Origin: Candidatus Levybacteria bacterium RIFCSPLOWO2_12_FULL_37_14
GTDB taxonomy: Bacteria; Patescibacteriota; Microgenomatia; Levybacterales; UBA12049
NCBI GenBank assembly: GCA_001782645.1
Contig: MFPH01000031.1
Location: 1-35,620, forward strand
Reading direction: 5' to 3'
Length of the DNA: 35,620 bases
Under the pieces are notes generated by a model. That model did no database searches, was not told where the DNA came from, and was given only the letters and a program-made list of their open reading frames with translations. Every line of letters starts with the position of its first letter. Positions within the stretch are counted from its first letter, which is position 1. Positions 7,606 to 22,881 of the stretch are shown piece after piece. Both the position numbers and the translations under genes were made by a program.

Positions 7606-8556
7606 TTAATTGTTATTAATTGTGTTCTTTGTATCTCCATTCATTTGTCTAAAAGCTTTTCTTTTTCGTAAAGATTCAGAAGTCGCATATGGTGACTTTC
7701 TGTCCTCGTATTCTCCTTCCAATACGTATGACTTGTCTCCGTATTTATTATAATAAAACAAACCAATATTATCTTCTCCGTCGTACAGCCATGTGTTACA
7801 TACCTTGCTTTTTATGAATTGTTCCTCGGAAGATAATTTATGCGTAAAGCCTGCGGAAGCAATTTTATCTATTAATTCCCTGTATTTATTTAACAGAGCA
7901 GGATTCAATTCCGATTCGGCAAGCGACAATGCTGCAAGAAATACTTCAAGTCGGAGCTTATCAGAGACATTTTCAGGTAATGTTCTTTGATAGTGTTGAT
8001 AAAGAGCGTGAAGGCTAAGCCAATTTGAAGCATCCGTAGGGAATAAATTTGCTTTCCAAAATTCCAGAATAAGCGCTTTGCTTTTTTCCTCATTAGCAAT
8101 AGTGTTTTTACTATCTGTTAAAGATTGCTTGTCCGATCTCTTTCGCAAACCGATAATCGTTCCTTTAGATCTTCTGATAGACTCTTTTTCAGGACTGAAA
8201 TAATCCTCAGGAATTCTGTGCCATTCCGGACGATCCTTTCTGCTTCTGTAAACAGCATTTCTTATCTGTTCTCTATTAAGGATTGGCTCCGTGATGAGGA
8301 GTATTTCCCAAACTGCTAATCCCCGTACGACAAAAGGCAATATCCTTTCGTAAACAGAGCTTTGTTTAACAACCTGTGATTTTTCTTTAGGTCCTGAATT
8401 CGCGGAAGCTATAATCAATTTTGTTTCCGGCGAATGAAGTAAGCCTTTGCAAGTCGGAACATGGGTGCCATCTTCACGAAGAATTAATGTTCCCTTGTTG
8501 AATGGATTCAGCATCCTGTTCGATCTCGTGACTATCCTGCTTTCTGTAGTTACCAT
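7606..8556 (-). CDS. Hypothetical protein (316 aa, orphan)
   Basis: Long ORF with no competing frame. No motif recognised. Confidence 0.65.
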   Translation of the reverse strand: MVTTESRIVTRSNRMLNPFNKGTLILREDGTHVPTCKGLLHSPETKLIIASANSGPKEKSQVVKQSSVYERILPFVVRGLAVWEILLITEPILNREQIRNAVYRSRKDRPEWHRIPEDYFSPEKESIRRSKGTIIGLRKRSDKQSLTDSKNTIANEEKSKALILEFWKANLFPTDASNWLSLHALYQHYQRTLPENVSDKLRLEVFLAALSLAESELNPALLNKYRELIDKIASAGFTHKLSSEEQFIKSKVCNTWLYDGEDNIGLFYYNKYGDKSYVLEGEYEDRKSPYATSESLRKRKAFRQMNGDTKNTINNN

Positions 8557-8929: not shown

Positions 8930-9457
8930 ATGGAAAAAATATCCAGTTTTCTTTTTTCAAACACTAAACTTTCCTGGCTATGGTTTTTTGTGAGAATTTA
9001 TGTTGGATGGACGTGGCTTACTGCGGGATGGGACAAGGTAATAAATCCCGTGTGGGCAGGGGACAAAGCGGGAGTAGCCGTATCCGGTTTTTTAACTAAA
9101 TCATTGACCAAAACAACAGGCGCGCATCCGGATGTGCAAGGATGGTATGCGTACTTCATAGAAACAATAGCTCTGCCTAATTCCGAGATTTTTTCCTATG
9201 TGGTTTCCTTTGGGGAGTTTTTTGTAGGGATTGCTTTAATTTTGGGCGCAGTTACAGGAATTGCAGCATTTTTCGGAGCATTTATGAATATAAATTATCT
9301 TTTCGCAGGAACTGTTAGTACAAATCCGGAGTTATTACTTCTTGAAATTTTCATAATGTTAGCATGGAAAACTGCAGGATGGTATGGTTTGGATAGATTT
9401 ATCTTGCCGCAAATTACAGCCTGTAAGTCGGGTAAAGCATCTAAAAAGCGCAATTAA
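8930..9457 (+). CDS. DoxX family membrane protein
   Basis: 175 aa with four TM segments. The N-terminal WLWFFVRIYVGWTWLTAGWDK is typical of DoxX/DoxD-like proteins. Confidence 0.75.
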   Translation: MEKISSFLFSNTKLSWLWFFVRIYVGWTWLTAGWDKVINPVWAGDKAGVAVSGFLTKSLTKTTGAHPDVQGWYAYFIETIALPNSEIFSYVVSFGEFFVGIALILGAVTGIAAFFGAFMNINYLFAGTVSTNPELLLLEIFIMLAWKTAGWYGLDRFILPQITACKSGKASKKRN

Positions 9458-9459
9458 CT

Positions 9460-10017
9460 ATGGCACAGATTAACAATAAGAACGAAAAAGTTTATGTTAC
9501 CCACATAAATATAAGGCAAAGCATATTTTTTTTGGTGCTTAAACTTATTCTGCTGGACATGATGGCTGTAATTATGGCGGCATTGTATTTTTCTTCGGTT
9601 TCAAATAAATTTATTCCCGAAGTATTAAATAATATAATATTATCATACAATTTGTCCTTTTTTTTGGTTCTGGTTTTTCTAAAAATCGCTTTGACTATTT
9701 ATGTTGTTATGAAATGGATAACTGAATATTACGAAATTTGGCCTCATGCAGTTATGCACTGGAGAGGCATTATCTGGAAAAATCAAGAGAAGCATCAATT
9801 ATCGCAGATGAGATCGGTAAAAATAGAACAGGGATTTTTTGGAAAAATTTTTGGGTTTGGTACGATATCTCTTTACAATTGGTATTTAAAAACCAATATT
9901 TCTTTGTATTTAATACACAATCCTATAAAATATTTTCATATTATTGAAAGTTTAATGCCAAAATCTGAAAATGACAGAGAAATTTTCTTGGACAAAACAG
10001 CTTCGGAAGAATCTTAG
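9460..10017 (+). CDS. Membrane protein with a bacterial PH (bPH_2 / YdbS-YdbT-like) domain
   Basis: Two N-terminal TM segments, then YYEIWPHAV...IKIEQGFFGKIFGFGTISLY, typical of bPH domains. Confidence 0.6.
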   Translation: MAQINNKNEKVYVTHINIRQSIFFLVLKLILLDMMAVIMAALYFSSVSNKFIPEVLNNIILSYNLSFFLVLVFLKIALTIYVVMKWITEYYEIWPHAVMHWRGIIWKNQEKHQLSQMRSVKIEQGFFGKIFGFGTISLYNWYLKTNISLYLIHNPIKYFHIIESLMPKSENDREIFLDKTASEES

Positions 10018-10042
10018 CATTTAGAGGAGGTGATTTGGAGTG

Positions 10043-10183
10043 ATGAATTTCGGAAATTGGGGAAGCGGGTATTATATGATGAATTCCGGTTTGGGGATTA
10101 GTATGTTCATCTTTTGGCTGATTATTTTAATCGACCTAATTCTTTTGGGAATTTGGTTATGGAAGCAAATAAATAAAAAATAG
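10043..10183 (+). CDS. Unannotated 46-aa small membrane protein (MNFGNWGSGYYMMNSGLGISMFIFWLIILIDLILLGIWLWKQINKK)
   Basis: Extended Shine-Dalgarno GAGGAGGTGATTTG (10024-10037). The start is the ATG at 10043, or the GTG at 10040. One TM helix. Confidence 0.6.
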   Translation: MNFGNWGSGYYMMNSGLGISMFIFWLIILIDLILLGIWLWKQINKK

Positions 10184-10206: not shown

Positions 10207-10258
10207 TTGACAAGAGATGGATTATGATTTAATATCTATCCCCATAGGGGGGATATCC
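10207..10258 (+). promoter_or_regulatory. Promoter plus CsoR-type operator of the copper/thiol operon
   Basis: TTGACA (10207-10212), 17-nt spacer, TAATAT (10230-10235). Directly downstream is a GC-cored inverted repeat, tatcccc-atagg-ggggata (10237-10255), resembling known CsoR operators. Confidence 0.65.
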
Positions 10259-10274
10259 TCAAAAAGAATAAAAT

Positions 10275-10547
10275 ATGGCATACAGACCTAAAGACACGCA
10301 GGAAAGAATTCTTCACCGTCTTAAGATAGCGCGGGGACATCTAAATAAAGTTATTCGGATGATTGAAGAAGACTGTTATTGCATTGATGTCTTGCATCAG
10401 ATGCAGGCAGTTGGAAGCGCAATTTCGGAAACAGAAGGCGTTGTTTTGGAAAATCATCTTAGAACATGCGCTCTTGACTCTATCAGAAAAGGCAAGCAGG
10501 AAGAAGCCATCAAAGAGATTATGACTGTTTTTAAGAAAAATAAATAA
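10275..10547 (+). CDS. csoR: CsoR-family metal-sensing repressor with a Cu(I)-type x-C-H-C fingerprint
   Basis: 90 aa. Contains YCIDVLHQMQAV (Cys) and NHLRTC (H-x3-C), the DUF156/CsoR signature. Confidence 0.85.
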   Translation: MAYRPKDTQERILHRLKIARGHLNKVIRMIEEDCYCIDVLHQMQAVGSAISETEGVVLENHLRTCALDSIRKGKQEEAIKEIMTVFKKNK

Positions 10548-10548
10548 T

Positions 10549-11046
10549 ATGAATGACAGAAAATTTATAATTATAACGGTTGTTTTAACGGTGGCGTTGC
10601 TTTTCGGAGGAATATTTTTCCTGACAAAAACAACTAACGCTCCTCAAATTACCGCTTCGCAAAATGCCAAAGCTTACGTAGTTGATCCTACAAGTTTTGA
10701 TTGGGGGGATATCCCGATGTATAAAGGAAATAAGACAAAAGTTTTTGCGATTAAAAATACAGGAACAGATACTCTTAAATTGTTTAATGTAAGAACTTCT
10801 TGCCATTGTACGAAGGCCTATGTTACGATTGACGGAAATGACAGTCCGAGCTTTGGTATGGATAACTTATCTGCTTGGACAGGAGAAGTGTTAGCAGGCA
10901 AAGAAGCAAAATTAACTGTGGTTTTTGATCCGGCATTTCATGGCCCCCAAGGCATGGGGGCGGTAAACAGATTTGTGTCCGTTGAGACAAACGACCAGGC
11001 AAATTCTAAGCTAACGTTTACTCTTACGGGAGCGGTAGTTAAATAA
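10549..11046 (+). CDS. Membrane-anchored DUF1573 domain protein (SCHCT motif)
   Basis: FDWGDIP...KVFAIKNTGTDTLKLFNVRTSCHCT matches the DUF1573 pattern. N-terminal TM segment. Confidence 0.75.
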   Translation: MNDRKFIIITVVLTVALLFGGIFFLTKTTNAPQITASQNAKAYVVDPTSFDWGDIPMYKGNKTKVFAIKNTGTDTLKLFNVRTSCHCTKAYVTIDGNDSPSFGMDNLSAWTGEVLAGKEAKLTVVFDPAFHGPQGMGAVNRFVSVETNDQANSKLTFTLTGAVVK

Positions 11047-11048
11047 AT

Positions 11049-12002
11049 ATGATTTCAAAAAAGCTTCAGAAAAAAATAAAAAAATTGCTGGCGAAAGTTA
11101 TTCCGCTTTGGCTAGTTATGATATTACTGTTAAATTCTATTCTGGCGACGGGATTTGTGCAGTATTATATTATGAAGAAAAACTTCAATGCGCAGCTTTC
11201 CGCTTTAGCGCAAACAACAAAGAATCCCGAAGAGCTGGTGCAAATTCTTAAGCAAAAAGTAATACCCCAAAAAGGATATAGATTAGCTGTGAAATGGAAT
11301 GATATCGGGAAGCAATTGCTGGAATCGGGAGCTATAGATAAGACAAAATACGAGGAGTTATTCGCGCAGGACCCTATTGCAAAAAAAGAAATGGCGGCGC
11401 ACATGATGAGTACTTCAAATGATTCAATGACAATAAATGAATCCAACTCCCGTTTTATGGTAAATACGTTGTGGGCGTTGGGACTGGTTAATAAGAGTAA
11501 AATCTTAGAAGAAGGATCAATGAAAACATACGGTAAGGGAGACGTGATGGGTTTTGCATCTACAGGCGGATGGACTTTGGGATCCAAGCCAACAAGCGAA
11601 CTTTATTCATCTAGGGAGATCATAAAGCTTACCTCGGAACAACAAGAATTAGTTAAGAAAATTGCCCTGACTGTTTATCGTCCGTGTTGCGGCAATTCAA
11701 CCGAATTTCCTGACTGTAATCATGGGATGGCAGCCTTAGGGTACATAGAGTTGGCTGTTGCCCAGGGGGTAGGGGAGAAAGAAATTTATCGCGACCTTCT
11801 GAGGCTTAATTCGTTTTGGTTTCCACAGCAGTACGTAGAGCTTGCCGCATATTTCAATCAGCAAAATGTCAGTTGGGATAAAGTTGATGCCAAAGTTGCT
11901 TTGGGTTCTCAATATTCTTCAGCGCAAGGAGCACAGCAGGTACATCAGGCTGTTCAAGGTGTGCCGGGCTTAAATGTTCAGCAGGGGGGTTGCGGGACAT
12001 AA
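11049..12002 (+). CDS. Membrane-anchored hypothetical protein with a CC-x8-C-x-H motif (RPCCGNSTEFPDCNHG)
   Basis: 317 aa with an N-terminal TM segment. The stop overlaps the next start (TAATG). I cannot assign a family. Confidence 0.7.
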   Translation: MISKKLQKKIKKLLAKVIPLWLVMILLLNSILATGFVQYYIMKKNFNAQLSALAQTTKNPEELVQILKQKVIPQKGYRLAVKWNDIGKQLLESGAIDKTKYEELFAQDPIAKKEMAAHMMSTSNDSMTINESNSRFMVNTLWALGLVNKSKILEEGSMKTYGKGDVMGFASTGGWTLGSKPTSELYSSREIIKLTSEQQELVKKIALTVYRPCCGNSTEFPDCNHGMAALGYIELAVAQGVGEKEIYRDLLRLNSFWFPQQYVELAAYFNQQNVSWDKVDAKVALGSQYSSAQGAQQVHQAVQGVPGLNVQQGGCGT

Positions 12003-12835
12003 TGGAACAAGTATTATTTCAAACCTCTTTAATTGCCGCATTCGTTGCGGGAATAGTTGCTCTTTTTGCTCCATGCTGCATCTCATTTTTATTGCCGGCT
12101 TATTTAGGTAGCGTATTCAAAGAAAAAGAAAAAGTGGTTTTGATGACCTTAGTTTTCGGATTGGGTATTTTTGTAATCATGTTGCCGGCAGTTTTGGGAG
12201 TGGCAGCGTTGTCCAAAGCTCTTTTTGTCTATCATGACAGTATTTATCTTTTAGGCGGGATTGTCATGCTTGTCTCGGCTGCGATTACTTTTTTGGGGAT
12301 AAAATTGCCAATGCCAAGTCTGCCCGGACGTAACACGCAAAAAACCGATGTGCTTTCGGTTTTTACTCTGGGAATTTTTTCGGGAATTACCTCTGCTTGC
12401 TGTGCGCCGGTTCTTATCGGCATCTTAACTTTAACATTCCTTTCGCCAAACTTCTTTGGAGCCCTATCAATTGGCGGAACGTATGTTTTGGGAATGGTCA
12501 TGCCTCTTCTTTTCATCGCAGTATTCCTTTCCGGAAAAATGGATAAATTTGCGTTTTTAAGAAAGTCATTGTTTAGTTTTATGTTTTTAGGCAAGAAAAG
12601 AATTGTAATTTTGAGCAGTTTTGTTGCAAGCATTATTTTTGCTTTTACGGGACTGATGATCCTTTATTTTAAAGCAATTGGCCGCTTGGGGATGGGGGAC
12701 GTATCGGGATTTACAAAAATGATTACTGATACGAGCAGTTTTGTAAATCAATATGTTGGAGGAAATTTGATTCTTAACCTTGCTTTCGTCGCGGTTCTTA
12801 TTTTTGTTCTTTATAAAATCAGTAAAAAAATATAG
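12002..12835 (+). CDS. Polytopic membrane protein, DsbD/CcdA-superfamily-like with vicinal cysteines (copy 1)
   Basis: LFAPCCISFLLPAYLG in TM1 and ACCAPVLIGILT in a later TM segment. The ATG at 12002 overlaps the upstream stop. Paralogue of 15044-15937. Confidence 0.6.
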   Translation: MEQVLFQTSLIAAFVAGIVALFAPCCISFLLPAYLGSVFKEKEKVVLMTLVFGLGIFVIMLPAVLGVAALSKALFVYHDSIYLLGGIVMLVSAAITFLGIKLPMPSLPGRNTQKTDVLSVFTLGIFSGITSACCAPVLIGILTLTFLSPNFFGALSIGGTYVLGMVMPLLFIAVFLSGKMDKFAFLRKSLFSFMFLGKKRIVILSSFVASIIFAFTGLMILYFKAIGRLGMGDVSGFTKMITDTSSFVNQYVGGNLILNLAFVAVLIFVLYKISKKI

Positions 12836-12861
12836 ATTAATACATGAGGAGGTGATTTGAA

Positions 12862-13029
12862 ATGAAAAAATGCTTAACAATGTGGCAAGTCTGGGCGGGG
12901 GTGGCAGCTATATTGGCAATAATGCTTATTTTTAAAAGCAATAGTCTTTTCTCAATTTTACCTTTCGCAGCTTTCCTAATCTGTCCGTTAATGATGATTT
13001 TTATGATGAAAGATCACAAAAAGCATTAA
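12862..13029 (+). CDS. Unannotated 55-aa DUF2933-like small membrane protein
   Basis: Extended Shine-Dalgarno GAGGAGGTGATTTGAA directly upstream. The C-terminal CPLMMIFMMKDHKKH resembles the CPLMHxFMH signature of DUF2933 (from memory). Confidence 0.6.
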   Translation: MKKCLTMWQVWAGVAAILAIMLIFKSNSLFSILPFAAFLICPLMMIFMMKDHKKH

Positions 13030-13032
13030 AGT

Positions 13033-13686
13033 ATGGAATACGCGTATGGAAACTGGTTTGTAGTAGTAATAATAAGCGGACTATTTCTTTGGTTTGTTTA
13101 CGACGCTTTCAAGCCTAAAAATAAGATTGATTGGCGGTCATTTGGTGCTTTTTCTGCTTTTATTATCGCTCTTTTTACAGAAATGTATGGTTTTCCATTA
13201 ACAATATACTTGCTTTCGTCTTGGTTGGGAAATAGATTTCCGCAAATTAACTTTTCTCATAACTCGGGACATTTGTGGGAAGATTTATTGGGAAATACAG
13301 CTGATCCGCATTTTAGCATTCTGCACATTTTAAGCTATGTCTTAATTGTTGGGGGATTAATCTTAATTAGCGTATCTTGGAAAGTGCTCTTTCAAGCCAC
13401 AAAGCAACATGTCATTGCAAAAACGGGCCCTTACAAATATATCAGGCATCCGCAATATGCTGGTTTTATAATTATTATTTTAGGATTTTTAATGCAATGG
13501 CCAACTTTACTTGCCCTAATTATGGCGCCGATTTTAACTATTATGTATATAAGATTAGCCCGAAAGGAAGAAGGGGAAGTCTTGCAAAAATATCCTCAGT
13601 ATAAAGATTACCTTAAAAACACCCCTGCCTTTTTGCCGACAATCAAAATCTTAAAAGTGCTGATAAATCATGAAAAAAAAGCTTAA
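13033..13686 (+). CDS. Isoprenylcysteine carboxyl methyltransferase (ICMT/PEMT) family membrane protein
   Basis: GPYKYIRHPQYAGF...ARKEEGEVLQKYPQYKDYLKNTP is the ICMT-family C-terminal signature. Confidence 0.8.
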   Translation: MEYAYGNWFVVVIISGLFLWFVYDAFKPKNKIDWRSFGAFSAFIIALFTEMYGFPLTIYLLSSWLGNRFPQINFSHNSGHLWEDLLGNTADPHFSILHILSYVLIVGGLILISVSWKVLFQATKQHVIAKTGPYKYIRHPQYAGFIIIILGFLMQWPTLLALIMAPILTIMYIRLARKEEGEVLQKYPQYKDYLKNTPAFLPTIKILKVLINHEKKA

Positions 13687-13688
13687 TT

Positions 13689-14150
13689 ATGAAACAACAA
13701 GCTTGTTTTTTATATCCAAACATTTTGGGGAAATCAGTAGCTAAAGGAATCATGGCATTTCTAGTCATTTTAACTGTATATTTTTTGGTCTTAACTCTGG
13801 TCTCAGGGTGGAGATTTGCGCAGGGACAATTTTTCCAATTTTGGTTTTATGTTGTCAGTCTTGCTTTGGGATTTGGAATTCAATTTGGTCTTTACAGTTA
13901 TCTTAAAGGCATCGTTAAGCAGAAGGCTTTTGCAGGGGGAGTTCTGGTTACAACCGGCGCAACTTCTGCTACGGCCATGATTTCCTGCTGTGCTCATTAT
14001 CTAACCAACATTTTGCCTATTCTTGGGGTAACGGGAATAATTACCTTCATAGGCCAATATCAAATTCAATTCTTTTGGCTCGGTTTATTCTTTAATTTCC
14101 TAGGAATTATCTATACTGGTAGCAAAATAATAAAATTTTCCAAACAATAA
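13689..14150 (+). CDS. Membrane protein with an intramembrane SCCAH motif
   Basis: 153 aa with about four TM segments, including TSATAMISCCAHYLTNILP. No family assigned. Confidence 0.65.
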   Translation: MKQQACFLYPNILGKSVAKGIMAFLVILTVYFLVLTLVSGWRFAQGQFFQFWFYVVSLALGFGIQFGLYSYLKGIVKQKAFAGGVLVTTGATSATAMISCCAHYLTNILPILGVTGIITFIGQYQIQFFWLGLFFNFLGIIYTGSKIIKFSKQ

Positions 14151-14152
14151 TT

Positions 14153-14653
14153 GTGAAAAAAATTGCAATAATTTTTATCGGTTTATTTCTGATAATTTTG
14201 GTGATTATACTTATGAAAAGTTTTTCTATCAGCATAAATTCAAAAAGTACAGGCAATTCCAATAAGGCGCTTAATCCAAGTCCAAGTAGTAGCAATAACT
14301 TGAAAGCAAAAGAAAATACAGAGGGTTCGGTTACTGTTGCAATTACTCAATTAAATTTAACAGATAACTCGCCTCGCTTTGCGGGCGAAGCGGGTTCATC
14401 GACCTTGGATTTTGAAATAGTGTTGGACACTCACTCCGGAGTATTGGATGCTGATTTGATTGGCGTATCCGAACTTGTTGATGATCAGGGGGAAATATAT
14501 AGACCAATAGCGTGGGAGGGGGATGGTCCGGAAGGGCATCACCGCAAGGGAGTTTTAAAATTTAAACCCATTCTGCCTAAGCCTAAGTCTATTGAATTGA
14601 AGATAAAGAATGTTGGCGGAATTCCCGAAAGAAGTTTTAAATGGAGCATCTAA
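14153..14653 (+). CDS. Secreted or anchored hypothetical protein with a W-E-G-D-G-P-E-G-H-H motif
   Basis: GTG start, signal-anchor MKKIAIIFIGLFLIILVIIL, and a beta-rich C-terminal domain. Carries the GC-rich element at 14368-14395. Confidence 0.65.
   Translation: MKKIAIIFIGLFLIILVIILMKSFSISINSKSTGNSNKALNPSPSSSNNLKAKENTEGSVTVAITQLNLTDNSPRFAGEAGSSTLDFEIVLDTHSGVLDADLIGVSELVDDQGEIYRPIAWEGDGPEGHHRKGVLKFKPILPKPKSIELKIKNVGGIPERSFKWSI
14368..14395. repeat. GC-rich element copy inside a CDS
   Basis: ctcgcctcgc-tttgcg-ggcgaagcgggt has the same 10-nt and 12-nt arms as 1799-1820. It encodes SPRFAGEAG. Confidence 0.7.
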
Positions 14654-14665
14654 AATTTAACTAAT

Positions 14666-15025
14666 ATGAGAGAGTTTTTTAAGCAGGGAATAGTGCAGAT
14701 ACTTGCGCAGCTTGGTATATGTACCGTAATGTGCGGCGCAGCTATTGGACTTTTAATTTCATCAGGGTGGCTGCTGCTTTTGTCCGATGAAGGGCGCAAT
14801 AAAACCTTTCTTATTCCGGCACTTATCGCCTTTGCCTTTGTGATATATGCATATATTGAAAATAAAAGGACCTGCCATCAAAAAGGTTTTTCATCAACCG
14901 GAGATAAGATATGGGGCATAATACTCTTCATGCTGCTTTCCGCATTAATTACAGTGCTTTTTACTCTCTATGTTTTTATCCCGTGGTGGATACCGAATTA
15001 TCAAGGTGGTTTTCTATTGCCTTAA
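14666..15025 (+). CDS. Small polytopic membrane protein (CTVMC motif)
   Basis: 119 aa with three to four hydrophobic segments. No family assigned. Confidence 0.6.
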   Translation: MREFFKQGIVQILAQLGICTVMCGAAIGLLISSGWLLLLSDEGRNKTFLIPALIAFAFVIYAYIENKRTCHQKGFSSTGDKIWGIILFMLLSALITVLFTLYVFIPWWIPNYQGGFLLP

Positions 15026-15043
15026 AATAACAATATATAATTT

Positions 15044-15937
15044 ATGGATCTTTTAATTAGCGCATCATTTGTAGCTTCGTTTCTCGCAGGAATTGCAGCG
15101 CTTTTTGCGCCCTGCTGCATTACAGTTTTACTGCCAACTTATTTTGCCTCCATTTTCAAACAAAAAACTACAGTTTTTTTAATGACTTTTGTTTACTTTC
15201 TTGGTATTTTATCTATTTTTCTTCCCCTTGGTCTGGGAGTAGCTCTGTTTACTCAAATCTTCAGTCAGTATCACGACACAGTTTTTCTTATCGGAGGGAT
15301 ATTTTTAGTCTTTTTGGGATTAAGTTTATTGCTGGGGCAGCAATTTTCTCTGCCTTTCAGAGTTCATCCGAAACTTCCAAAAGAGGATTTTATCTCAGTT
15401 TATATTTTAGGTATATTTTCTGCAATCGCTACCACTTGCTGCGCGCCGGTTCTGGCAGGAGTTTTAACTCTATCGGCACTTCCGGGATCGTTTATCTTGG
15501 GAGGCATTTATACCCTTGCTTATGTATTAGGAATGGTTTTGCCTTTGTTTATTATTGCTTCATTTTTGGATAAAATTGATTTTACCAAAAAGTTTTTCGC
15601 TTTTCGGAAAAGTTTATCCTACAACATTTTGGGTCAAAAAATTCACATTACTTTTGCTAATCTCCTGTCGGGCTTAACGTTTCTAATTTTAGGAATAATT
15701 ATTATCTATTTTGCAAAAACAGAACAGCTCACATCGCATTCTCAATATCAAGTAATGCTAAATATTTATCTGACAAAATTCATCAAACTTATAAGTGGTT
15801 TTGCCACATTAGTTCCCGAAGTTGTTTGGGCTTTGATTTTTGTCGGCATAGCGCTATTTATTACTTATTTTGCAATTAAAAAATTTAGGTCTCTAAAGAA
15901 AAGGGGGCTTGTCCCTCCGAAGCCCGATCCTAAATAA
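15044..15937 (+). CDS. Polytopic membrane protein, DsbD/CcdA-superfamily-like with vicinal cysteines (copy 2)
   Basis: LFAPCCITVLLPTYFA and TCCAPVLAGVLT, collinear with 12002-12835. It has an extra C-terminal tail, RGLVPPKPDPK, encoded by a GC hairpin. Confidence 0.6.
   Translation: MDLLISASFVASFLAGIAALFAPCCITVLLPTYFASIFKQKTTVFLMTFVYFLGILSIFLPLGLGVALFTQIFSQYHDTVFLIGGIFLVFLGLSLLLGQQFSLPFRVHPKLPKEDFISVYILGIFSAIATTCCAPVLAGVLTLSALPGSFILGGIYTLAYVLGMVLPLFIIASFLDKIDFTKKFFAFRKSLSYNILGQKIHITFANLLSGLTFLILGIIIIYFAKTEQLTSHSQYQVMLNIYLTKFIKLISGFATLVPEVVWALIFVGIALFITYFAIKKFRSLKKRGLVPPKPDPK
15905..15925 (+). repeat. GC hairpin forming the 3' tail of the CDS
   Basis: gggctt (15905-15910) pairs with aagccc (15920-15925). 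The loop contains tccctcc, an anti-SD-like sequence. Confidence 0.45.
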
Positions 15938-15964
15938 GGAATTCGGTAAAATAGTATTTAGGTG

Positions 15965-16007
15965 CGAAACCCTCCTTCGCATAAAGCTACGGAGGGCGAA
16001 GGGGGGT
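15965..16007 (+). promoter_or_regulatory. GC-rich palindromic leader element able to sequester the Shine-Dalgarno of the redoxin gene
   Basis: accctccttcgc (15969-15980) can pair over 12 bp (one G-U) with gcgaaggggggt (15996-16007), which contains the Shine-Dalgarno. Alternatively ccctcc (15970-15975) pairs with ggaggg (15991-15996). Confidence 0.55.
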
Positions 16008-16015
16008 GATTTGAA

Positions 16016-16690
16016 ATGAAGAAAACTGGAACTTTAGTAACTTTGGGTACGGGAATAATTGCGCTGATAGTCATTCTTAGTAATTACAATATCAAATTAA
16101 GCATGGATAAAAAAGAAGACTCGGTTTCTGTAAATCAACAAGTTTCTCCTGCGGTTCAAGAATCACAAGATGATTCTATGGCAAGCATGCATGGGGGAGC
16201 AGCTCCCGGCGCGAATGCAGCAGTTTTTAATAGCTTAATTGGCACAATAGCTCCTGATTTTACATTGGAAACATATGACGGAGATAAAATTACTTTAAGT
16301 AGCTTGAAAGGCAATAGCGTAATTTTGTTTTTCAATGAAGGTTTAATGTGTTATCCGTCTTGCTGGAATCAGATTGTTGCTTTTGGCAAAGACGCGGAAT
16401 TAGGCAAAAAGGCGGTTCTTTTGAGCATTACGGCTGATCCCAAAAATGACTGGAAATCCGCTTTAGATAAAATGCCGGAACTGGCTCAGGCAACAGTGCT
16501 TTTTGACAGCAATAGACAAGTTTCAGCAAAATATGGAGTCCTAACTCTTCCCTCATCAATGCACAAGGGACAGTTTCCGGGACATAGCTATGTAATTGTT
16601 GATAAGAATGGAATTGTTAAATTTGTTCAAGACGATGTCCAGATGGCAGTCAGAAATAAAGAACTGTCTTCCGAAATCGACAAGCTGTAA
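16016..16690 (+). CDS. Membrane-anchored thioredoxin-fold protein (redoxin / AhpC-TSA / TlpA-like) with an atypical CYPSC motif
   Basis: APDFTLETYDGDKITLSSLKGNSVILFFNEGLMCYPSC matches the redoxin N-terminal layout. N-terminal TM segment. Confidence 0.75.
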   Translation: MKKTGTLVTLGTGIIALIVILSNYNIKLSMDKKEDSVSVNQQVSPAVQESQDDSMASMHGGAAPGANAAVFNSLIGTIAPDFTLETYDGDKITLSSLKGNSVILFFNEGLMCYPSCWNQIVAFGKDAELGKKAVLLSITADPKNDWKSALDKMPELAQATVLFDSNRQVSAKYGVLTLPSSMHKGQFPGHSYVIVDKNGIVKFVQDDVQMAVRNKELSSEIDKL

Positions 16691-16699
16691 ATTCTTATT

Positions 16700-16903
16700 T
16701 TAACCGCAACAAGATTTTTTGGCAGGAACGTTTTCCTTTTTGTCAATGTAATTTTTTGCTCCTGCATTAAACTGATCTTTGCAGTTTTCTGAACAGAAAG
16801 AATATTTTGTGCCTCCAAATTCTGAAGAAAACTCAGTTTTTTTATCCAGTTTCATTTTGCAAACCGGATCAGTAACTTTTTGTGAAAATGAAAATCCAAA
16901 CAT
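16700..16903 (-). CDS. YHS/TRASH-type metal-binding domain protein with a C-terminal SCCG
   Basis: DPVCKMKLDKK...YSFCSENCKDQF is the YHS pattern. Shine-Dalgarno GGGAGGTGATTT lies upstream on the minus strand. Confidence 0.8.
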   Translation of the reverse strand: MFGFSFSQKVTDPVCKMKLDKKTEFSSEFGGTKYSFCSENCKDQFNAGAKNYIDKKENVPAKKSCCG

Positions 16904-16954: not shown

Positions 16955-19036
16955 TCAATCAAGCTTAGTTCTTCTTAAGAGTAAAGCATTGAAAACAACA
17001 ATAATTGACGATGCGCTCATTAATAATGCTGCCCATTCTGGTCGGAGTAGGATGCCAAATGATGGGTAAAGTATTCCTGCCGCTATTGGAACGGCAAAGG
17101 TATTATATCCTGTTGCCCAAATAAGATTTTGCACCATTTTCGTATTGGTTTTGCGGCTTAAAGAAATTGCCTTAACTACATCCATCGGGTCATTTTTCAT
17201 TAAGACTATGTCTGCCGATTCAACTGCAACATCTGTTCCTGCGCCTATTGCAATTCCGACATGCGCTTGGGTAAGGGATGGGGCATCATTAACGCCGTCT
17301 CCAACCATAGCGACGATATTTCCATCCTGCTGCAATTGTTTAATTTTATTAACTTTATCTTTTGGTAATACTTGAGCAAAAACAGTGTCCATATTGAGTT
17401 GTTTTCCTGTTTCATTGGCCACATCAGGGGTGTCTCCTGTAAGCATGGCTATTTTTATTCCCATATCATGCAGTCTTTTGACAACTGTTTTTGATTCCTC
17501 TCTGATGATGTCCGCAAGGAGAATTATTCCGGTTAATTTATTATTTATGGCAACATAGACCGGCGTAGCGGCTTTGATTTTTGAGTCAGGAATTATGAAT
17601 TTTGAATCATGTATCCTTAGGTCTTTCATTAAAGTTATGTTTCCTACAATAACAAACCTATTATCGACAATCCCTTCTGCTCCACGTCCTGGATAAGACT
17701 TGAATTTCTTAACGGTTGAAATTTTTAGTCCTTTGTTTTTTGCGTCTTGAACAATCCCTTTTGCTATAGAATGTTGTGAGTTTAATTCAACTGCCGCTGC
17801 TAATTTTAATAATTCTTGATTCTTGATTTTTGATTCTTGATTCATCATTACGTCTACTACTCCAAATTCTCCTTTTGTCAGTGTTCCTGTTTTATCAAAT
17901 ACCACATAACTGATTTTTCTGGCAATTTCCAAACCCTTCATATCTTTGATTAAAATACCATTTTTTGCCCCAAGAGTAGAAGTAATCGTAGTGACTGTGG
18001 GTATGGCAAGACCTAACGCATGGGGACAAGCAACCACAATTGCCGCAACTGCCACAGTTGCCGCAAAAACAATACCCTCAGGCAAAATAAATGCCCAGGT
18101 AACAAATGAAATAGTTCCGGCAATAATCGCTACGAAAAATAAGACACTGGCCGCTCGGTCAGCCAGATGCTGAACATTGGGTTTTGAACTTTGGGCTTCC
18201 CGGATTAACTTCATAATTTGGGAAATTGCCGTATCAGCCCCGGTTTTGGAAACTTCAATCGTTAAGGCTCCATCCTGATTGATAGTGCCGCCAATTACTT
18301 TATCGCCTTTTTTCTTAGTGATAGGCCTTGATTCTCCGGTGACCATAGATTCATTAACAGAACTTTCGCCATCTATTACTGCTCCGTCAACCGGAATTTT
18401 TTCTCCCGGCTTGACTAAAACTTTGTTGCCCATCACCAATTGACTGGTTTTAACATCCGTAATATTTCCGTTTTGAAGAAGATGAGCGGATGGGGGAATA
18501 AGCTTGGCTAATTCAGACAGCGCGCCTGTTGCTCCTCTGACAGCTCTCATTTCCAGCCAATGTCCTAGCAGAAAAACAGAAATAAGAGTAGATATTTCCC
18601 AATATAAAGATTCTTTGGGGAAGAGGAAAGTTGCTGCAACCGAAAAAGTATAGCCCGCTGTGATTGCAAAAGCTACCAGAGTCATCATTCCCGGATTTTT
18701 ACTGAATAATTCACCTTTTGCAGCTTTGAAAAAAGGTATTCCGCCAAAAAAGAAAATAAAAGTGCCCAAAACAAAAAGTAGGACTTGAATGCCTGAAAAA
18801 TTCAGATTAAAATGCAGCCATTTTTGGATATTGGGGGAAAGCAGCATGGTCAGTAAAACTGCAGGCAGGGAGATAAAGAAACGCTTTCTGAAATCTTTTT
18901 CCATTGAACTGTGGTCTTCGCGTCCTTCCTCATGGCTTGAATTCATCGGGACAAGCTTCATTCCGCATTTGGGACAAATACCGGGTTGTTCACGTATTAT
19001 ATCCGGATCCATGGGACAGGTATACATTAATTCCAT
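16955..19036 (-). CDS. copB: P1B-type heavy-metal ATPase, CopB-like (CPH motif)
   Basis: 693 aa with [15 protein letters not shown] and TGES motifs, and CPH in the transmembrane metal site (VVACPHALG). N-terminal Cys-rich metal-binding domain YTCPMDPD...CPKCGMKL. Confidence 0.9.
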
Positions 19037-19040
19037 ATAT

Positions 19041-19310
19041 CTATTGATGAACTCTCTTAAATAATTTTAACAGTTCTTCTGTTGCTTTGTTCTTTTGATT
19101 TTGAAATTGATCGGCAACGTGTGTTTTTAAGTGTTTCTTAAGCAAAAGACTATCAAGGCTTTTGATGGAATTTTGAATAGCCAAACTTTGGTTGAGCAAA
19201 TCTATGCAATATTCATCTTGATCAATCATTCTTTGCAGGCCGTCAAGTTGTCCTTTGATAATATTAATTCTTCTTTGAGCATCGCTCTTGACATCCCTAT
19301 TTGAATTCAT
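19041..19310 (-). CDS. CsoR/RcnR-family repressor with an atypical x-C-H-H fingerprint
   Basis: 89 aa with [13 protein letters not shown] (Cys) and KKHLKTH (H-x3-H, as in RcnR), but no His near the N-terminus. Confidence 0.8.
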
Positions 19311-19320
19311 ATATATTTAT

Positions 19321-19349
19321 AGTATATACCCCTGGGGGGTATATGTCAA
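19321..19349 (-). promoter_or_regulatory. Promoter with a CsoR-type operator embedded in the spacer
   Basis: The minus strand reads TTGACA-tataccccccaggggta(17)-TATACT-N10-ATG. The spacer contains the inverted repeat atatacccc-tgg-ggggtatat (19324-19344). No Shine-Dalgarno. Confidence 0.7.
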
Positions 19350-19365: not shown

Positions 19366-19382
19366 CAAAGGAGGTGAAAAAA

Positions 19383-19640
19383 ATGAAGCAATACGTTGTT
19401 CCAAACGCTTTAGCTGTCACAACGGCAATTATTTATGCAGCGTGCCGAATTTTAGTTGGTATATTTCCTGATGCATTTTTTACGATCGCTCAATCATGGT
19501 TTCATGGCATAGGGTTTAACAAATTAAGCGCTGAAAGCTTAACTATGTCATCATTATTGTTGGGTTTAATCTCATCCACAATTACAGCTTGGGTAGTCGG
19601 CTATATCTTTATAAAAGTTTACAAAGAATTTACTAAATAA
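19383..19640 (+). CDS. Small two-TM membrane protein (85 aa)
   Basis: AAGGAGGTGA Shine-Dalgarno 8 nt upstream of the ATG at 19383 (the track start at 19374 is a GTG inside the Shine-Dalgarno). Divergent from the csoR-like gene. Confidence 0.7.
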   Translation: MKQYVVPNALAVTTAIIYAACRILVGIFPDAFFTIAQSWFHGIGFNKLSAESLTMSSLLLGLISSTITAWVVGYIFIKVYKEFTK

Positions 19641-19678: not shown

Positions 19679-20080
19679 TTAACTTTCTAATAATTTTAGA
19701 AAGTCTTTTGGGGAGAGAATTTTTGTGTTATTATATTGTTTAAGTTTTAGAACAAGTTTGTCTCCGCTTATTAAATAATTTGCTTGAGCCTCAAGAGCTA
19801 GTTCCAGAACGAAATTGTCCGTAGCGTCTTTGCAGACAAAAAGCTTCTTTTTAGGAATATATTTTTCTGTTTTAGCATCTAATGCTTCTTCGATATCTTG
19901 GATTGCGCGAGCAGGTAAAAAAAATTTATTCTGCAGTTTGTTAATAATTTCTGATTTCAATTCGGGTGATAAACAAAATGTATATTTTTTATTTAACCAT
20001 GCTTCAATTATTGATTGAGGATTTCCACCATAAAGAACGCCGGAAATAAATACATTAGTATCGATAACGGCCTTATGCAT
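19679..20080 (-). CDS. PIN-domain toxin (VapC-like)
   Basis: 133 aa with AVIDTNVFISG at the N-terminus and the later acidic residues ATDNFVLELA and ISGD, typical of a PIN fold. Overlaps the upstream antitoxin gene by 8 nt. Confidence 0.85.
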   Translation of the reverse strand: MHKAVIDTNVFISGVLYGGNPQSIIEAWLNKKYTFCLSPELKSEIINKLQNKFFLPARAIQDIEEALDAKTEKYIPKKKLFVCKDATDNFVLELALEAQANYLISGDKLVLKLKQYNNTKILSPKDFLKLLES

Positions 20081-20366
20081 TTTTTATAATTGAGTAGGCT
20101 TTATCTTCGGAGCGGGGGACTTCTATTGATTTATTCCGAAGATATTTTTTAAAGGACTTTTTTCCTTCAGCAAAAATCTTTTGAAATTTAACTTTAAAAA
20201 GCTGATCCCTCTCTTTTTCTTGTTTCACTATTTCATTGTAAGGATAAATAACTACAGAGGGAGAACTGTCTTGCACTATGACAACAGGCTGTTTTGTCGC
20301 TTGTATCCTGTTAATAAGTTTTGCCAAATTATTTCTGGCATCGGTAATGCTTACTATCTGTAACAT
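20073..20366 (-). CDS. Phd/YefM-family antitoxin
   Basis: 97 aa. MLQIVSITDARNNLAKLINRI...PVVIV is the Phd/YefM N-terminal signature. Confidence 0.8.
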   Translation of the reverse strand: MLQIVSITDARNNLAKLINRIQATKQPVVIVQDSSPSVVIYPYNEIVKQEKERDQLFKVKFQKIFAEGKKSFKKYLRNKSIEVPRSEDKAYSIIKNA

Positions 20367-22132: not shown

Positions 22133-22798
22133 TTACAAGCTCTTTTTAATAATTAAAGTGATTTCGTCGTCAATCATCGTTCCGCCTTTTGGTAATATCC
22201 GCCCATCAATCTTCAAACCCTCGTCCTTTAATAAATTGCAAACATTAATTTTGAAAGATTTACTGTTAATAGTGGGGGACTGGAGTCGTATTTCCTGCGT
22301 TGTTAATTGCGCAAGCGCTATTTTCATATGATCCCGTTCAAAGATAACGGGGTCAACGACGGTCGACAAATTTCCTGTCGGAGCTAATATTCTTTTTGCC
22401 TCTATCACATGACTATGAAGATCTTGTTCATCTTCCGCATAATAAAATAAAGCACATACGGAAACGATTAAATCTATGGAATTATCTTCAAGCCCCGTTT
22501 CGCTAAAAGTTCCGTTGATATACTCCAAAAATTTGTATTGTTTTTTCGGAAGCTCGCGATCTAGAGCCAGACAATTTATTTTTTGTAAGAATAATTTTCG
22601 ACCGATTTGAGATATGGCTTTTCCCTTTCCGCACCCCATATCCAAAATTTTGCCCCCTTTTGTTAATTGTTTCTCCAAAGAATCTAGGAAATCTTTTGCA
22701 TGTGGAAAGCCATTTACCAGGGCGTAATCTCGCGAATCCCGATTTCTCTCCATGCTTACCATTTCGGAGAAAGGACGATATCCAATTGACTCATGCAT
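22133..22798 (-). CDS. Class I SAM-dependent methyltransferase
   Basis: Motif I ILDMGCGKGKA. I prefer the ATG at 22798 (MHESIGY), which has TATAAT 10 nt upstream. The track start at 22837 is a TTG. Confidence 0.8.
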   Translation of the reverse strand: MHESIGYRPFSEMVSMERNRDSRDYALVNGFPHAKDFLDSLEKQLTKGGKILDMGCGKGKAISQIGRKLFLQKINCLALDRELPKKQYKFLEYINGTFSETGLEDNSIDLIVSVCALFYYAEDEQDLHSHVIEAKRILAPTGNLSTVVDPVIFERDHMKIALAQLTTQEIRLQSPTINSKSFKINVCNLLKDEGLKIDGRILPKGGTMIDDEITLIIKKSL

Positions 22799-22881
22799 AT
22801 GGTCTAGAATTATACATAAAAGAATAAAATTCTCCAAATTATTCCTGCCAAATGCAGGTTTACAAATATAATAATAAAAGC

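Follow-up and report, generated by a model that had tools for sequence, protein, structure and literature searches.

A CsoR-led operon of cysteine-rich membrane and surface proteins in a Levybacteria genome: a probable, unstudied defence of the cell envelope against copper

A chromosomal stretch of 35,620 nucleotides from a Levybacteria (Patescibacteria) genome (contig MFPH01000031.1; this whole stretch is hereafter called the window) contains eleven co-oriented genes, from csoR1 through a redoxin gene, which probably form an unstudied copper-defence system of the cell envelope. We assign a probability of roughly 0.55 to the reading, drawn from sequence comparisons, that copper derepresses the operon and that its products work in the envelope, where shuttles of the CcdA type would hold tethered cysteine proteins in a reduced state for capturing Cu(I) and repairing thiols. 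The linkage to copper is strong, because the operon has a Cu(I)-type regulator with conserved operators, copper pump and YHS genes as neighbours and, in other genomes, a second, unrelated Cu(I) sensor gene. The thiol-handling part of the reading is based on the membership of two operon proteins in the CcdA family, their thioredoxin (Trx)-fold neighbours and the equivalence of selenocysteine (Sec) and Cys at the CxC motif of a DUF1573 protein, and the two lines of evidence together lead us to favour a reductant relay. A first-pass annotation of the same DNA, made from the letters alone, had proposed an uncharacterised envelope Cu(I)/thiol system behind a CsoR operator, and this proposal is now supported by the regulator and its operator, the gene neighbourhoods and the second sensor.

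Apart from a 78-nt leader in front of the redoxin gene, the intergenic spacers range from -1 to 26 nt (in operon order 1, 2, -1, 26, 3, 2, 2, 12, 18 and 78 nt), in agreement with the close spacing described by the first-pass annotation, and no strong terminator-like site was found within the operon. A Pfam scan confirms CsoR, DUF1573, DUF2933, ICMT (which had been placed mid-operon before), DsbD_TM (in CcdA-like 2) and AhpC-TSA/Redoxin, as well as YHS, an E1-E2 ATPase with HMBD and DUF5676 (Table 1). DUF1573, the 317-aa anchored Cys protein (P317), S166 and the redoxin each have a single N-terminal hydrophobic helix. All Cys motifs listed previously are present, namely SCHCT, PCC-x8-C-x-H, APCC/CCAP, CPLMM, SCCAH, CTVMC and CYPSC, as are GHH in the secreted protein S166 and the C-terminal SCCG of the YHS protein. 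The ten non-regulator proteins of the operon (1990 aa) contain six vicinal CC pairs, compared with 0.29 expected from their own Cys content, and the remaining open reading frames (ORFs) of the window (7597 aa) contain none; the Cys residues of the operon CC motifs are kept in homologues. The operon is a composite, as a core of four genes (CsoR, DUF1573 with its CxC motif, P317 and a CcdA-like membrane protein) is widespread and the other genes are modular accessories, which fall into three modules: DUF2933-ICMT, M153-S166 (with M119) and CcdA2-redoxin.

Table 1. Coordinates and main features of the candidate copper operon and its neighbouring elements in the window.
Feature	Position	Strand	Description
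sm47	10040..10183	+	47-aa Met-rich single-pass membrane protein, MM..GYYMM..DLILLGIWLWKQINKK
Sigma-70-like promoter	10207..10235	+	TTGACA-17-TAATAT; 10/12 consensus positions
Type-1 CsoR operator (putative)	~10234-10258	.	ATCTATCCCCATAGGGGGGATAT, C-tract/G-tract palindrome
Copper operon (candidate)	10275-16690	+	Eleven co-oriented genes, csoR1 through redoxin gene
csoR1	10275..10547	+	PF02583, E 1.3e-23; 83.6 bits vs cut-off 22.8
DUF1573 protein	10549..11046	+	PF07610, E 1.2e-13; 51.3 bits vs cut-off 26.1
P317	11049..12002	+	N-terminal membrane helix and ~250-aa helical extracytoplasmic domain
CcdA-like 1	12002..12835	+	Polytopic; APCC (first transmembrane helix, TM1) and CCAP (TM4)
DUF2933 small membrane protein	12862..13029	+	PF11666, E 1.8e-8; CPLMMIFMM
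ICMT-family membrane methyltransferase	13033..13686	+	PF04140, E 4.5e-10; 40.3 bits vs cut-off 24
M153 membrane protein	13689..14150	+	~Four predicted helices (from hydrophobic segments); SCCAH
S166	14153..14653	+	Anchored secreted protein, Ig-like beta-sandwich (predicted); GHH motif
M119 small membrane protein	14666..15025	+	CTVMC motif
CcdA-like 2	15044..15937	+	PF02683, 43.2 bits vs cut-off 27.1
Spacer with hairpin	15938..16015 (hairpin ~15968-16006)	+	78 nt, covers redoxin Shine-Dalgarno
Redoxin	16016..16690	+	Anchored thioredoxin fold; AhpC-TSA, E 1.1e-16, 61.4 bits vs cut-off 26
YHS-domain protein	16700..16903	-	PF04945, E 2.7e-14; ends SCCG
P1B-type ATPase	16955..19036	-	PF00122, PF00702, PF19335; N-terminal HMBD
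csoR2	19041..19310	-	PF02583, E 5.8e-22; C-H-H signature
Type-2 operator (putative)	19323..19344	.	TATATACCCCTGGGGGGTATAT, between divergent promoters
DUF5676 two-helix membrane protein	19374..19640	+	PF18926, E 4.1e-17

CsoR1 carries the ligand signature of Cu(I)-type regulators (C36/H61/C65; it reads C-C-H-C at positions 34/36/61/65, as in the M. tuberculosis-type x-C-H-C pattern), and the His of the Cu(I) site is kept in CsoR1 and in 48 of 49 related regulators. Both the -10 hexamer and the likely start of transcription overlap with the putative type-1 operator, an ATCCCC-N-GGGGAT palindrome, and C-tract/G-tract palindromes lie upstream of 37 of the 47 csoR genes in related loci (background 0.2 per 270 nt). 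A second regulator gene, csoR2, is located directly upstream of the ATPase and YHS genes in a unit that is convergent with the operon; its product reads E-C-H-H and thus departs from the Cu(I)-type x-C-H-C signature. The type-2 palindrome sits between the promoters of this csoR2-ATPase-YHS unit and of the DUF5676 gene, and CsoR2 presumably controls the ATPase, YHS and DUF5676 genes. In related loci, the type-1 pattern ATATCCCC-N3-5-GGGGGATAT precedes C-H-C csoR genes, which mostly head DUF1573-P317 operons (a csoR followed by DUF1573 is of the C-H-C type in 23 of 25 cases), and the type-2 pattern ATACCCC-N-GGGGTAT precedes C-H-H csoR genes, which mostly head ATPase or YHS genes. Operator type follows CsoR type in these loci, and the window holds one operator of each type in the expected places. 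Two CsoR classes with their own operator flavours, ATCCCC..GGGGAT with C-H-C regulators and TACCCC..GGGGTA with C-H-H regulators, also occur in other sampled loci (L009, L033, L034, L038, L046, L058, L067, L073, L077 and L079). The C-H-H ligand set suggests a different metal selectivity or affinity.

Gene neighbourhoods were compared in 80 loci around P317 homologues from species-representative genomes, whose six-frame ORFs were searched with the window proteins; 41 of these loci have at least 5 kb on both sides of P317 (full-flank loci). The comparison, of a kind that had been suggested with the first-pass annotation for the APCC/CCAP family, showed that the genes co-occur elsewhere: CsoR, a P1B ATPase or YHS is encoded in 62 of the 80 loci and in 37 of the 41 full-flank loci. 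Individually, DUF1573 was found in 57 loci (33 full-flank), the P1B ATPase in 53 (34), a CcdA-like protein in 52 (28), CsoR in 46 (29), DUF5676 in 29 (15), M153 in 17 (9), S166 in 15 (8) and the redoxin in 8 (4), while sm47 occurs in 12/80 loci, YHS in 10/80, ICMT in 3/80 and DUF2933 in 2/80. The most common order is CsoR, DUF1573, P317, CcdA, (sm47), DUF5676, ATPase. CcdA-like genes adjoin P317 or DUF1573 in 51/80 loci, the redoxin gene adjoins a CcdA-like gene in seven of the eight loci that have it, and M153 and S166 are mutually adjacent in nearly all loci that have them.

The same genes are found on plasmids and islands of Proteobacteria. P317 homologues with 30-33% identity (E 1e-22 to 1e-27) are encoded on ten plasmids of cultured Burkholderiaceae. 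On a conjugative plasmid of B. contaminans, the cluster begins with cueR, a pair of small hypothetical genes (one Met-rich), DUF2933, a CC-type CcdA and an AhpC/TSA-family redoxin (CQPC), continues with a small CxxC protein annotated as thioredoxin family, ICMT, a peroxiredoxin and a P-type ATPase, and ends with the P317 homologue (YRPCCDNSTFYQDCNHG) and a class I S-adenosylmethionine (SAM) methyltransferase. Its DUF2933, CcdA(CC), redoxin, ICMT, ATPase and P317 genes are co-oriented downstream of cueR, and multicopper oxidase, DUF411/CopG, DsbD-domain, CcdA, TlpA and SCO genes surround the cluster. CueR is a MerR-type Cu(I) sensor unrelated to CsoR. A Tat-like signal with RRRF is present in the P317 homologues of Burkholderia. 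The full B. contaminans CcdA ORF begins ..ALFAPCCISVMLPAY (L084 9063-10010, equivalent to NZ_CP090638.1 131062-132009); the RefSeq start of this 'CcdA' lies ~90 nt too far downstream, so that the first membrane helix and the APCC motif are lost. In B. thailandensis and P. fungorum, DUF2933, P317 and SAM methyltransferase genes are located within copper/mercury islands. The first-pass annotation had associated the system with an organism of minimal envelope, but it is not peculiar to such hosts.

In all three Burkholderiaceae islands examined, P317 adjoins a class I SAM methyltransferase gene (L084 16271-16885, L085 9919-10485 and L086 8102-8719), and these neighbours, with the ICMT of the window, hint at a methylation step linked to the system. 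A class I methyltransferase gene of the window (22133-22837) was considered as the counterpart of the Burkholderia enzyme and set aside, as the similarity is only generic. The window ICMT is ~60% identical to ICMT genes of Acinetobacter plasmids (e.g., NZ_KX528688.1 9782-10432), which are flanked by DUF2933 and a P-type ATPase gene in cop clusters, whereas the window and Acinetobacter ATPases are only 39% identical; this difference suggests horizontal exchange of the DUF2933-ICMT pair between phyla. The pair has been associated with merR-copA on proteobacterial genomic islands (PMC8478169).

It is highly implausible that these are housekeeping genes for disulfide handling or cytochrome c maturation which lie near copper genes by chance. 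Although homologues are annotated in databases as 'cytochrome c biogenesis protein CcdA' and the redoxin resembles ResA, the window ORFs that were scanned with Pfam yielded no gene for handling heme, and to our knowledge Patescibacteria generally lack respiratory cytochromes. Furthermore, the genes are co-oriented and tightly spaced behind a CsoR operator, without a strong internal terminator, and the linkage to copper genes extends to 37/41 full-flank loci and to two unrelated Cu sensors.

The second gene of the operon encodes a DUF1573 protein with an N-terminal membrane anchor and an Ig-like domain. Its TSCHCT motif belongs to a TSCxCT pattern kept in 64 of 66 aligned sequences, in which M104, H131 and R141 are also conserved. 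In selenoprotein relatives of DUF1573, UGC replaces the CxC motif (PMC9312934). Such Sec/Cys exchange at the DUF1573 CxC is typical of redox-active or metal-binding sites.

The first-pass annotation had listed two polytopic paralogues without assigned function. Their paralogy holds (39% identity, E 2e-53, with shared architecture and CC pairs), but by sequence both can be placed in the known CcdA/DsbD_TM family, which points to reductant transfer. Profile searches, likewise proposed earlier, assigned CcdA-like 2 to PF02683 and left P317 and M153 without a Pfam family. CcdA-like 2 matches the T. thermophilus CcdA structure 5vkv (E 1.4e-14), and in this alignment the first Cys of APCC and of CCAP corresponds to the CcdA active-site Cys. 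CcdA-like 1, whose start is most likely ATG 12002, the one used in public gene calls, rather than TTG 11990, gave weak DsbD/TsoB matches. Both proteins have the CcdA-type Cys in TM1 and TM4, and deviate from the family in that both Cys are doubled. Among 55 homologues the CC pairs are conserved in 50-53, and APCC..LLP, H78, PMP, CCAPVL and Y161 are conserved as well.

This doubling lies behind another explanation, in which the CC-type CcdA proteins are Cu(I) translocators: the doubled Cys of a re-purposed CcdA scaffold would form a four-thiolate membrane site comparable to the CC of MerT/MerF, with DUF1573, P317 and the redoxin as donors or acceptors outside in a chain of thiolate hand-offs, and M153 (CCxH) would be a second conduit of this kind. 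CC recurs in P317, in both CcdA paralogues, in M153 and in the YHS protein, with the excess in the operon given above; both CC pairs are nearly invariant in the CcdA-like homologues; the flexible C-terminal tail of P317 with its invariant C315 recalls metal-delivery tails; and P317 can be fused to another Cys-pair membrane domain where CcdA1 and DUF1573 are absent. In addition, the LysE/DsbD superfamily includes metal transporters. We nonetheless consider metal conduction unlikely, since neither Pfam nor NCBIfam yields a match to MerT, MerC or MerF, classic CcdA partners are present (an adjacent Trx-fold protein, plus a small thioredoxin-family protein in Burkholderia), a dedicated Cu ATPase already adjoins the operon and no energy coupling for export is obvious. 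It keeps some probability because a reductant relay leaves the Cys doubling of CcdA, the CC motifs of P317 and M153 and the Cys tail of P317 unexplained. A tentative and rather doubtful reading is that DUF1573, P317 and the CC-type CcdA form an unrecognised thiolate-relay machine for copper, with the Cys-doubled CcdA as an intramembrane Cu(I) site that passes metal (or metal and electrons) to or from P317 with its swinging C-terminal Cys arm. If true, the machine would constitute a new class of system for transporting or sequestering copper, one that is found widely in Patescibacteria and travels on plasmids of Proteobacteria.

The second CcdA-like gene is followed by the redoxin gene. The redoxin carries MCYPSCW (MCYPxCW in homologues) and conserved SSMH and PGH motifs; the CYPSC motif listed earlier is thus present, as C-x3-C and not C-x2-C. 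Its matches in the PDB are Bcp, TlpA and ResA. A role as peroxiredoxin was rejected: the peroxidatic PxxxT/SxxC motif is missing from FFNEGLMCYPSCW, where neither Cys is preceded by Pro at -7 or by Thr/Ser at -3. Because this motif is absent, we treat the redoxin as a putative TlpA/ResA-like thiol-disulfide protein, not a peroxidase. Compared with Sco, CxxxC is present and His183/His190 are conserved, but PF02630 matches weakly (14.1 bits vs cut-off 22.8) and the Burkholderia homologue has CxxC. The 78-nt leader of the redoxin gene folds (dG -30.6 kcal/mol, z -2.95), as the first-pass annotation had described, and the arms CCCUCCUUCGC...GCGAAGGGGGG of its hairpin are predicted to sequester the Shine-Dalgarno sequence. 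It is lineage-specific, has no match in Rfam and is not conserved in six other loci with the same gene pair; as both the match and the conservation are absent, it was dropped as a general regulatory RNA feature.

P317 is encoded by the third gene of the operon. An alignment of 67 sequences shows W142, C213, C214, N216, D222, C223 and C315 as invariant and R211, P212, N224, H225 and G226 as nearly invariant, which form a YRPCCxNxTxFPDCNHG motif (RPCC-x8-C-N-H in the window) and a C-terminal GGxCG tail. P317 has no match in Pfam or NCBIfam (a Pfam scan of the 67 aligned members gave two stray hits only), and sequence and profile searches against the PDB returned nothing significant. A confident AlphaFold2 model (pTM 0.83; predicted local distance difference test score, pLDDT, 93.5) consists of an anchor helix (residues 4-56), a mostly helical globular domain and a less ordered C-terminal tail, with a pLDDT of 59 for the last residues of this flexible Cys tail. 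A Foldseek search with the model against PDB and BFVD gave nothing below E 0.1. P317 appears to represent a new family of proteins with a new fold. A word-indexed search retrieved 6242 relatives and an exhaustive search 514 clusters at 50% identity; they occur in at least 589 GTDB species genomes, nearly all of Patescibacteria and some of Chloroflexi.

Homologues of P317 are fused to an N-terminal rhodanese, a four-helix CxxC membrane domain or a C-terminal BNR/Ycf48-like domain. In the rhodanese fusions (L055, L061, L064, L071, L074, L075; P0137), an anchored rhodanese with an intact CKTGRMS loop precedes P317, and five of six such loci have no nearby CcdA-like gene. The four-helix domain (L027, L076, L077; P0136, P0142 and ~12 others) is ~170 aa long, has an invariant CPxCG..P..GLExK pattern and belongs to no Pfam family. 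A profile-profile comparison of the M153 family with this fused domain was collinear and aligned the Cys pairs, with a weak probability of 27%; BLASTP between the two found nothing. The C-terminal half of the homologue P0161 is a BNR/Ycf48-like beta-propeller, and the Burkholderia copper island has a stand-alone gene for a BNR/Sortilin-like protein (L084 22873-23775).

The recurrent rhodanese-P317 fusions with their intact active-site loop bear on a further alternative, that the operon handles reactive sulfur species (persulfides, sulfide) instead of copper, akin to the cst operons under CstR. P317 would then carry or process sulfur, and small thiols would be methylated by the ICMT-like enzyme. 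The CsoR family has members which are not copper sensors (PMC10318464), the ICMT has a weak match to the methanethiol S-methyltransferase MddA (E 0.0011), DoxX is encoded upstream (8930-9457) and DsrE-family genes are found in the P. fungorum island that holds a P317 homologue. Even so, a sulfur system in place of a copper system is quite improbable: the Cu(I)-site His is kept in CsoR1 and nearly all related regulators, P1B ATPase, YHS and HMBD genes prevail in the neighbourhoods, the copy in Burkholderia is found downstream of cueR among multicopper oxidase and CopG-like genes, and DoxX occurs in only 2/80 loci. The rhodanese fusions leave some probability for a component of sulfur chemistry.

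Several observations weigh against the reductant relay that we favour. CcdA-like 1 falls below the Pfam threshold for DsbD_TM. Canonical CcdA needs one Cys per half, and the doubling to CC, which resembles the intramembrane CC of Mer transporters, is unexplained by a disulfide relay. A CcdA-like gene is absent from about a third of P317 loci, and CcdA is not the obligatory partner of P317, as some loci lack CcdA-like and their P317 is fused to rhodanese or to the CxxC four-helix domain. P317 itself is without a detectable relative of known function in sequence, profile, Pfam and Foldseek searches. Furthermore, the C-H-H regulator CsoR2 may sense something besides Cu(I).

In E. coli, DsbD first came to light as cutA2/dipZ, a locus for copper tolerance. 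DsbC/DsbD are needed under copper stress, and the Salmonella Scs system ties DsbD-like proteins to copper tolerance. Within the reductant-relay reading, rising cytoplasmic Cu(I) would cause CsoR1 to leave the DNA, and the eleven genes would be transcribed. Their products would work on the outside of the membrane, where thiols come under attack from exported copper. The tethered partners there could receive, through the two CcdA-family proteins, reducing equivalents that originate from thioredoxin in the cytoplasm: CcdA1 might serve DUF1573 with its CxC and P317 with its CC, C, H and Cys tail at the C-terminus, and CcdA2 might serve the C-x3-C redoxin. Once reduced, these partners would bind and buffer Cu(I) and, in envelope proteins, undo disulfides whose formation copper catalyses. 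DUF2933-ICMT and M153-S166, the latter with MxxCCxH inside the membrane and a His/Trp beta-sandwich on its outer side, may be add-on modules common to other copper islands. In this scheme we infer the direction of electron flow, the binding of Cu(I) and the pairing of partners from motifs and gene order.

Among the accessory genes, M153 has S93, M97, C100, C101, H103 and P110 as invariant residues, and its neighbour S166 has H94, W121, H129, H130 (GGHH) and W164. The AlphaFold2 model of S166 (pLDDT 76.8) gave DUF4426 (3uc2, 1.8e-4) and MPT63 as best Foldseek matches, with weaker matches to the copper proteins CrdA and FetP. M119, which matches no Pfam family above threshold, has a homologue in 1/80 loci and is a lineage-specific accessory gene. 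The ATPase of the convergent unit reads ACPHALG (CPH, TM4), GYN (TM5) and MSASS (TM6) in its translation; we take CPH, YN and MSxS(T/S) to be the motifs of the P1B-3 subgroup, and the ATPase can be classed by its sequence as CopB-like (P1B-3). The DUF5676 protein has conserved C24, W42 and H44. The sm47 gene is located just upstream of the operon promoter in the window and inside CsoR operons in other genomes; where present, it is always on the P317 strand, within 3 kb and usually between the CcdA-like and DUF5676 genes. An sm47-like segment forms the C-terminus of a longer Met/His-rich protein in another locus (L004 11699-12271), and a protein of a further one (L037 8797-9720) joins a Met/His-rich domain of this type to a DUF5676-like C-terminus.

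The genes that flank the region are ordinary (PPDK, enolase, dehydrogenase and TerC). P317 occurs in identical form and in an identical gene order on JGI and ENA groundwater metagenome contigs, and its nearest named relatives are proteins of Levybacteria metagenome-assembled genomes. DoxX and bPH_2 membrane protein genes (8930-10017) lie upstream of sm47; this DoxX-bPH_2-sm47 trio is syntenic in the Levybacteria loci L003 and L077 and otherwise rare near P317. A PIN_3/PhdYeFM toxin-antitoxin pair (19679-20080 and ~20073-20366, minus strand) is encoded directly downstream of the copper genes according to the gene calls of L001 and L002, and a 316-aa ORF upstream of the region (7606-8556, minus strand) has no Pfam match.

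Many Patescibacteria, despite tiny genomes, keep this module beside a copper pump, which points to an important and unstudied handling of copper at the cell surface; its importance is indicated by the many tiny genomes that retain the module and by the 60-90% identity of P317 and the CcdA-like proteins across Microgenomates. With no Pfam entry, no solved fold relative and an invariant Cys4/His site, P317 is a good target for metallobiochemistry, and the Cys-doubled CcdA leads one to ask whether metal conduits can arise from disulfide shuttles. As cultivable Burkholderia carry the same genes on conjugative copper/mercury plasmids, the system is directly testable, and it bears on the spread of metal resistance. 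Literature searches, within the library that could be searched, found no description of the module, P317 or DUF5676. Envelope defence under a Cu sensor with reductant import by the DsbD family is known; the composition of the system is new, and so, apparently, are the family and fold of P317.

Among the closest known arrangements are the CcdA pairs with thioredoxin-like proteins (CcdA-ResA/StoA of B. subtilis and CcdA1/2-Etrx1/2 of S. pneumoniae), in which a gene of the six-helix DsbD_TM type likewise adjoins that of a tethered Trx-fold protein. As in monoderm CcdA pairs, CcdA is duplicated in the window, and a partner gene of its own adjoins each paralogue. Unlike in these pairs, the active-site Cys are doubled to CC, a C-terminal extension of ~100 aa is added, one paralogue is paired with DUF1573 and P317 instead of a Trx-fold protein, the redoxin has C-x3-C and the whole set is under a Cu(I) repressor. 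The operon resembles the Scs and DsbD/DsbC systems of Salmonella, Caulobacter and E. coli in that import of reductant into the envelope is tied to copper tolerance and Trx-fold proteins are the substrates; in Caulobacter a peroxiredoxin-family envelope protein serves as a DsbD-family substrate, in a paper that describes the ScsB family (PMC3322552). In contrast to Scs, the CcdA-like proteins of the window have no soluble domains (ScsB-type N- and C-terminal periplasmic domains), the operon encodes no ScsC/DsbA/DsbG-like protein, DUF1573 and P317 are unrelated to Scs proteins and the host is a monoderm. By analogy, Scs may be regarded as a functional counterpart only, and the operon falls outside ScsABCD.

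With the merR-copA-cupredoxin-DUF2933-ICMT cluster (PMC8478169) and with copper plasmids of Acinetobacter and Burkholderia, the window shares a DUF2933-ICMT pair beside a Cu P-type ATPase and a Cu(I) sensor. It differs from this cluster in that CsoR replaces MerR/CueR and DUF1573 stands in the place of the cupredoxin, and the DUF2933-ICMT pair is rare among the sampled loci of the candidate phyla radiation. Like MerT/MerF, which have a vicinal CC in the first membrane helix, the CcdA-like proteins of the window contain an intramembrane CC followed by Pro (CCAPVL). We take CCLGPL and CCFTPV to be the corresponding Mer motifs. Unlike Mer transporters, no operon protein matches their families in Pfam or NCBIfam and the fold is CcdA-like; MerR, MerP and MerA were not found among the Pfam-scanned ORFs of the window. 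Finally, the operon is similar to the canonical CsoR-copZA operons (B. subtilis and the M. tuberculosis cso operon) in its C-H-C CsoR, in the GC-tract pseudo-palindrome over the promoter and in a nearby P1B ATPase. In contrast to these operons, the window is without CopZ, the CsoR-led operon encodes ten envelope proteins and not the pump, and the pump has a C-H-H CsoR paralogue of its own with a distinct type of operator.

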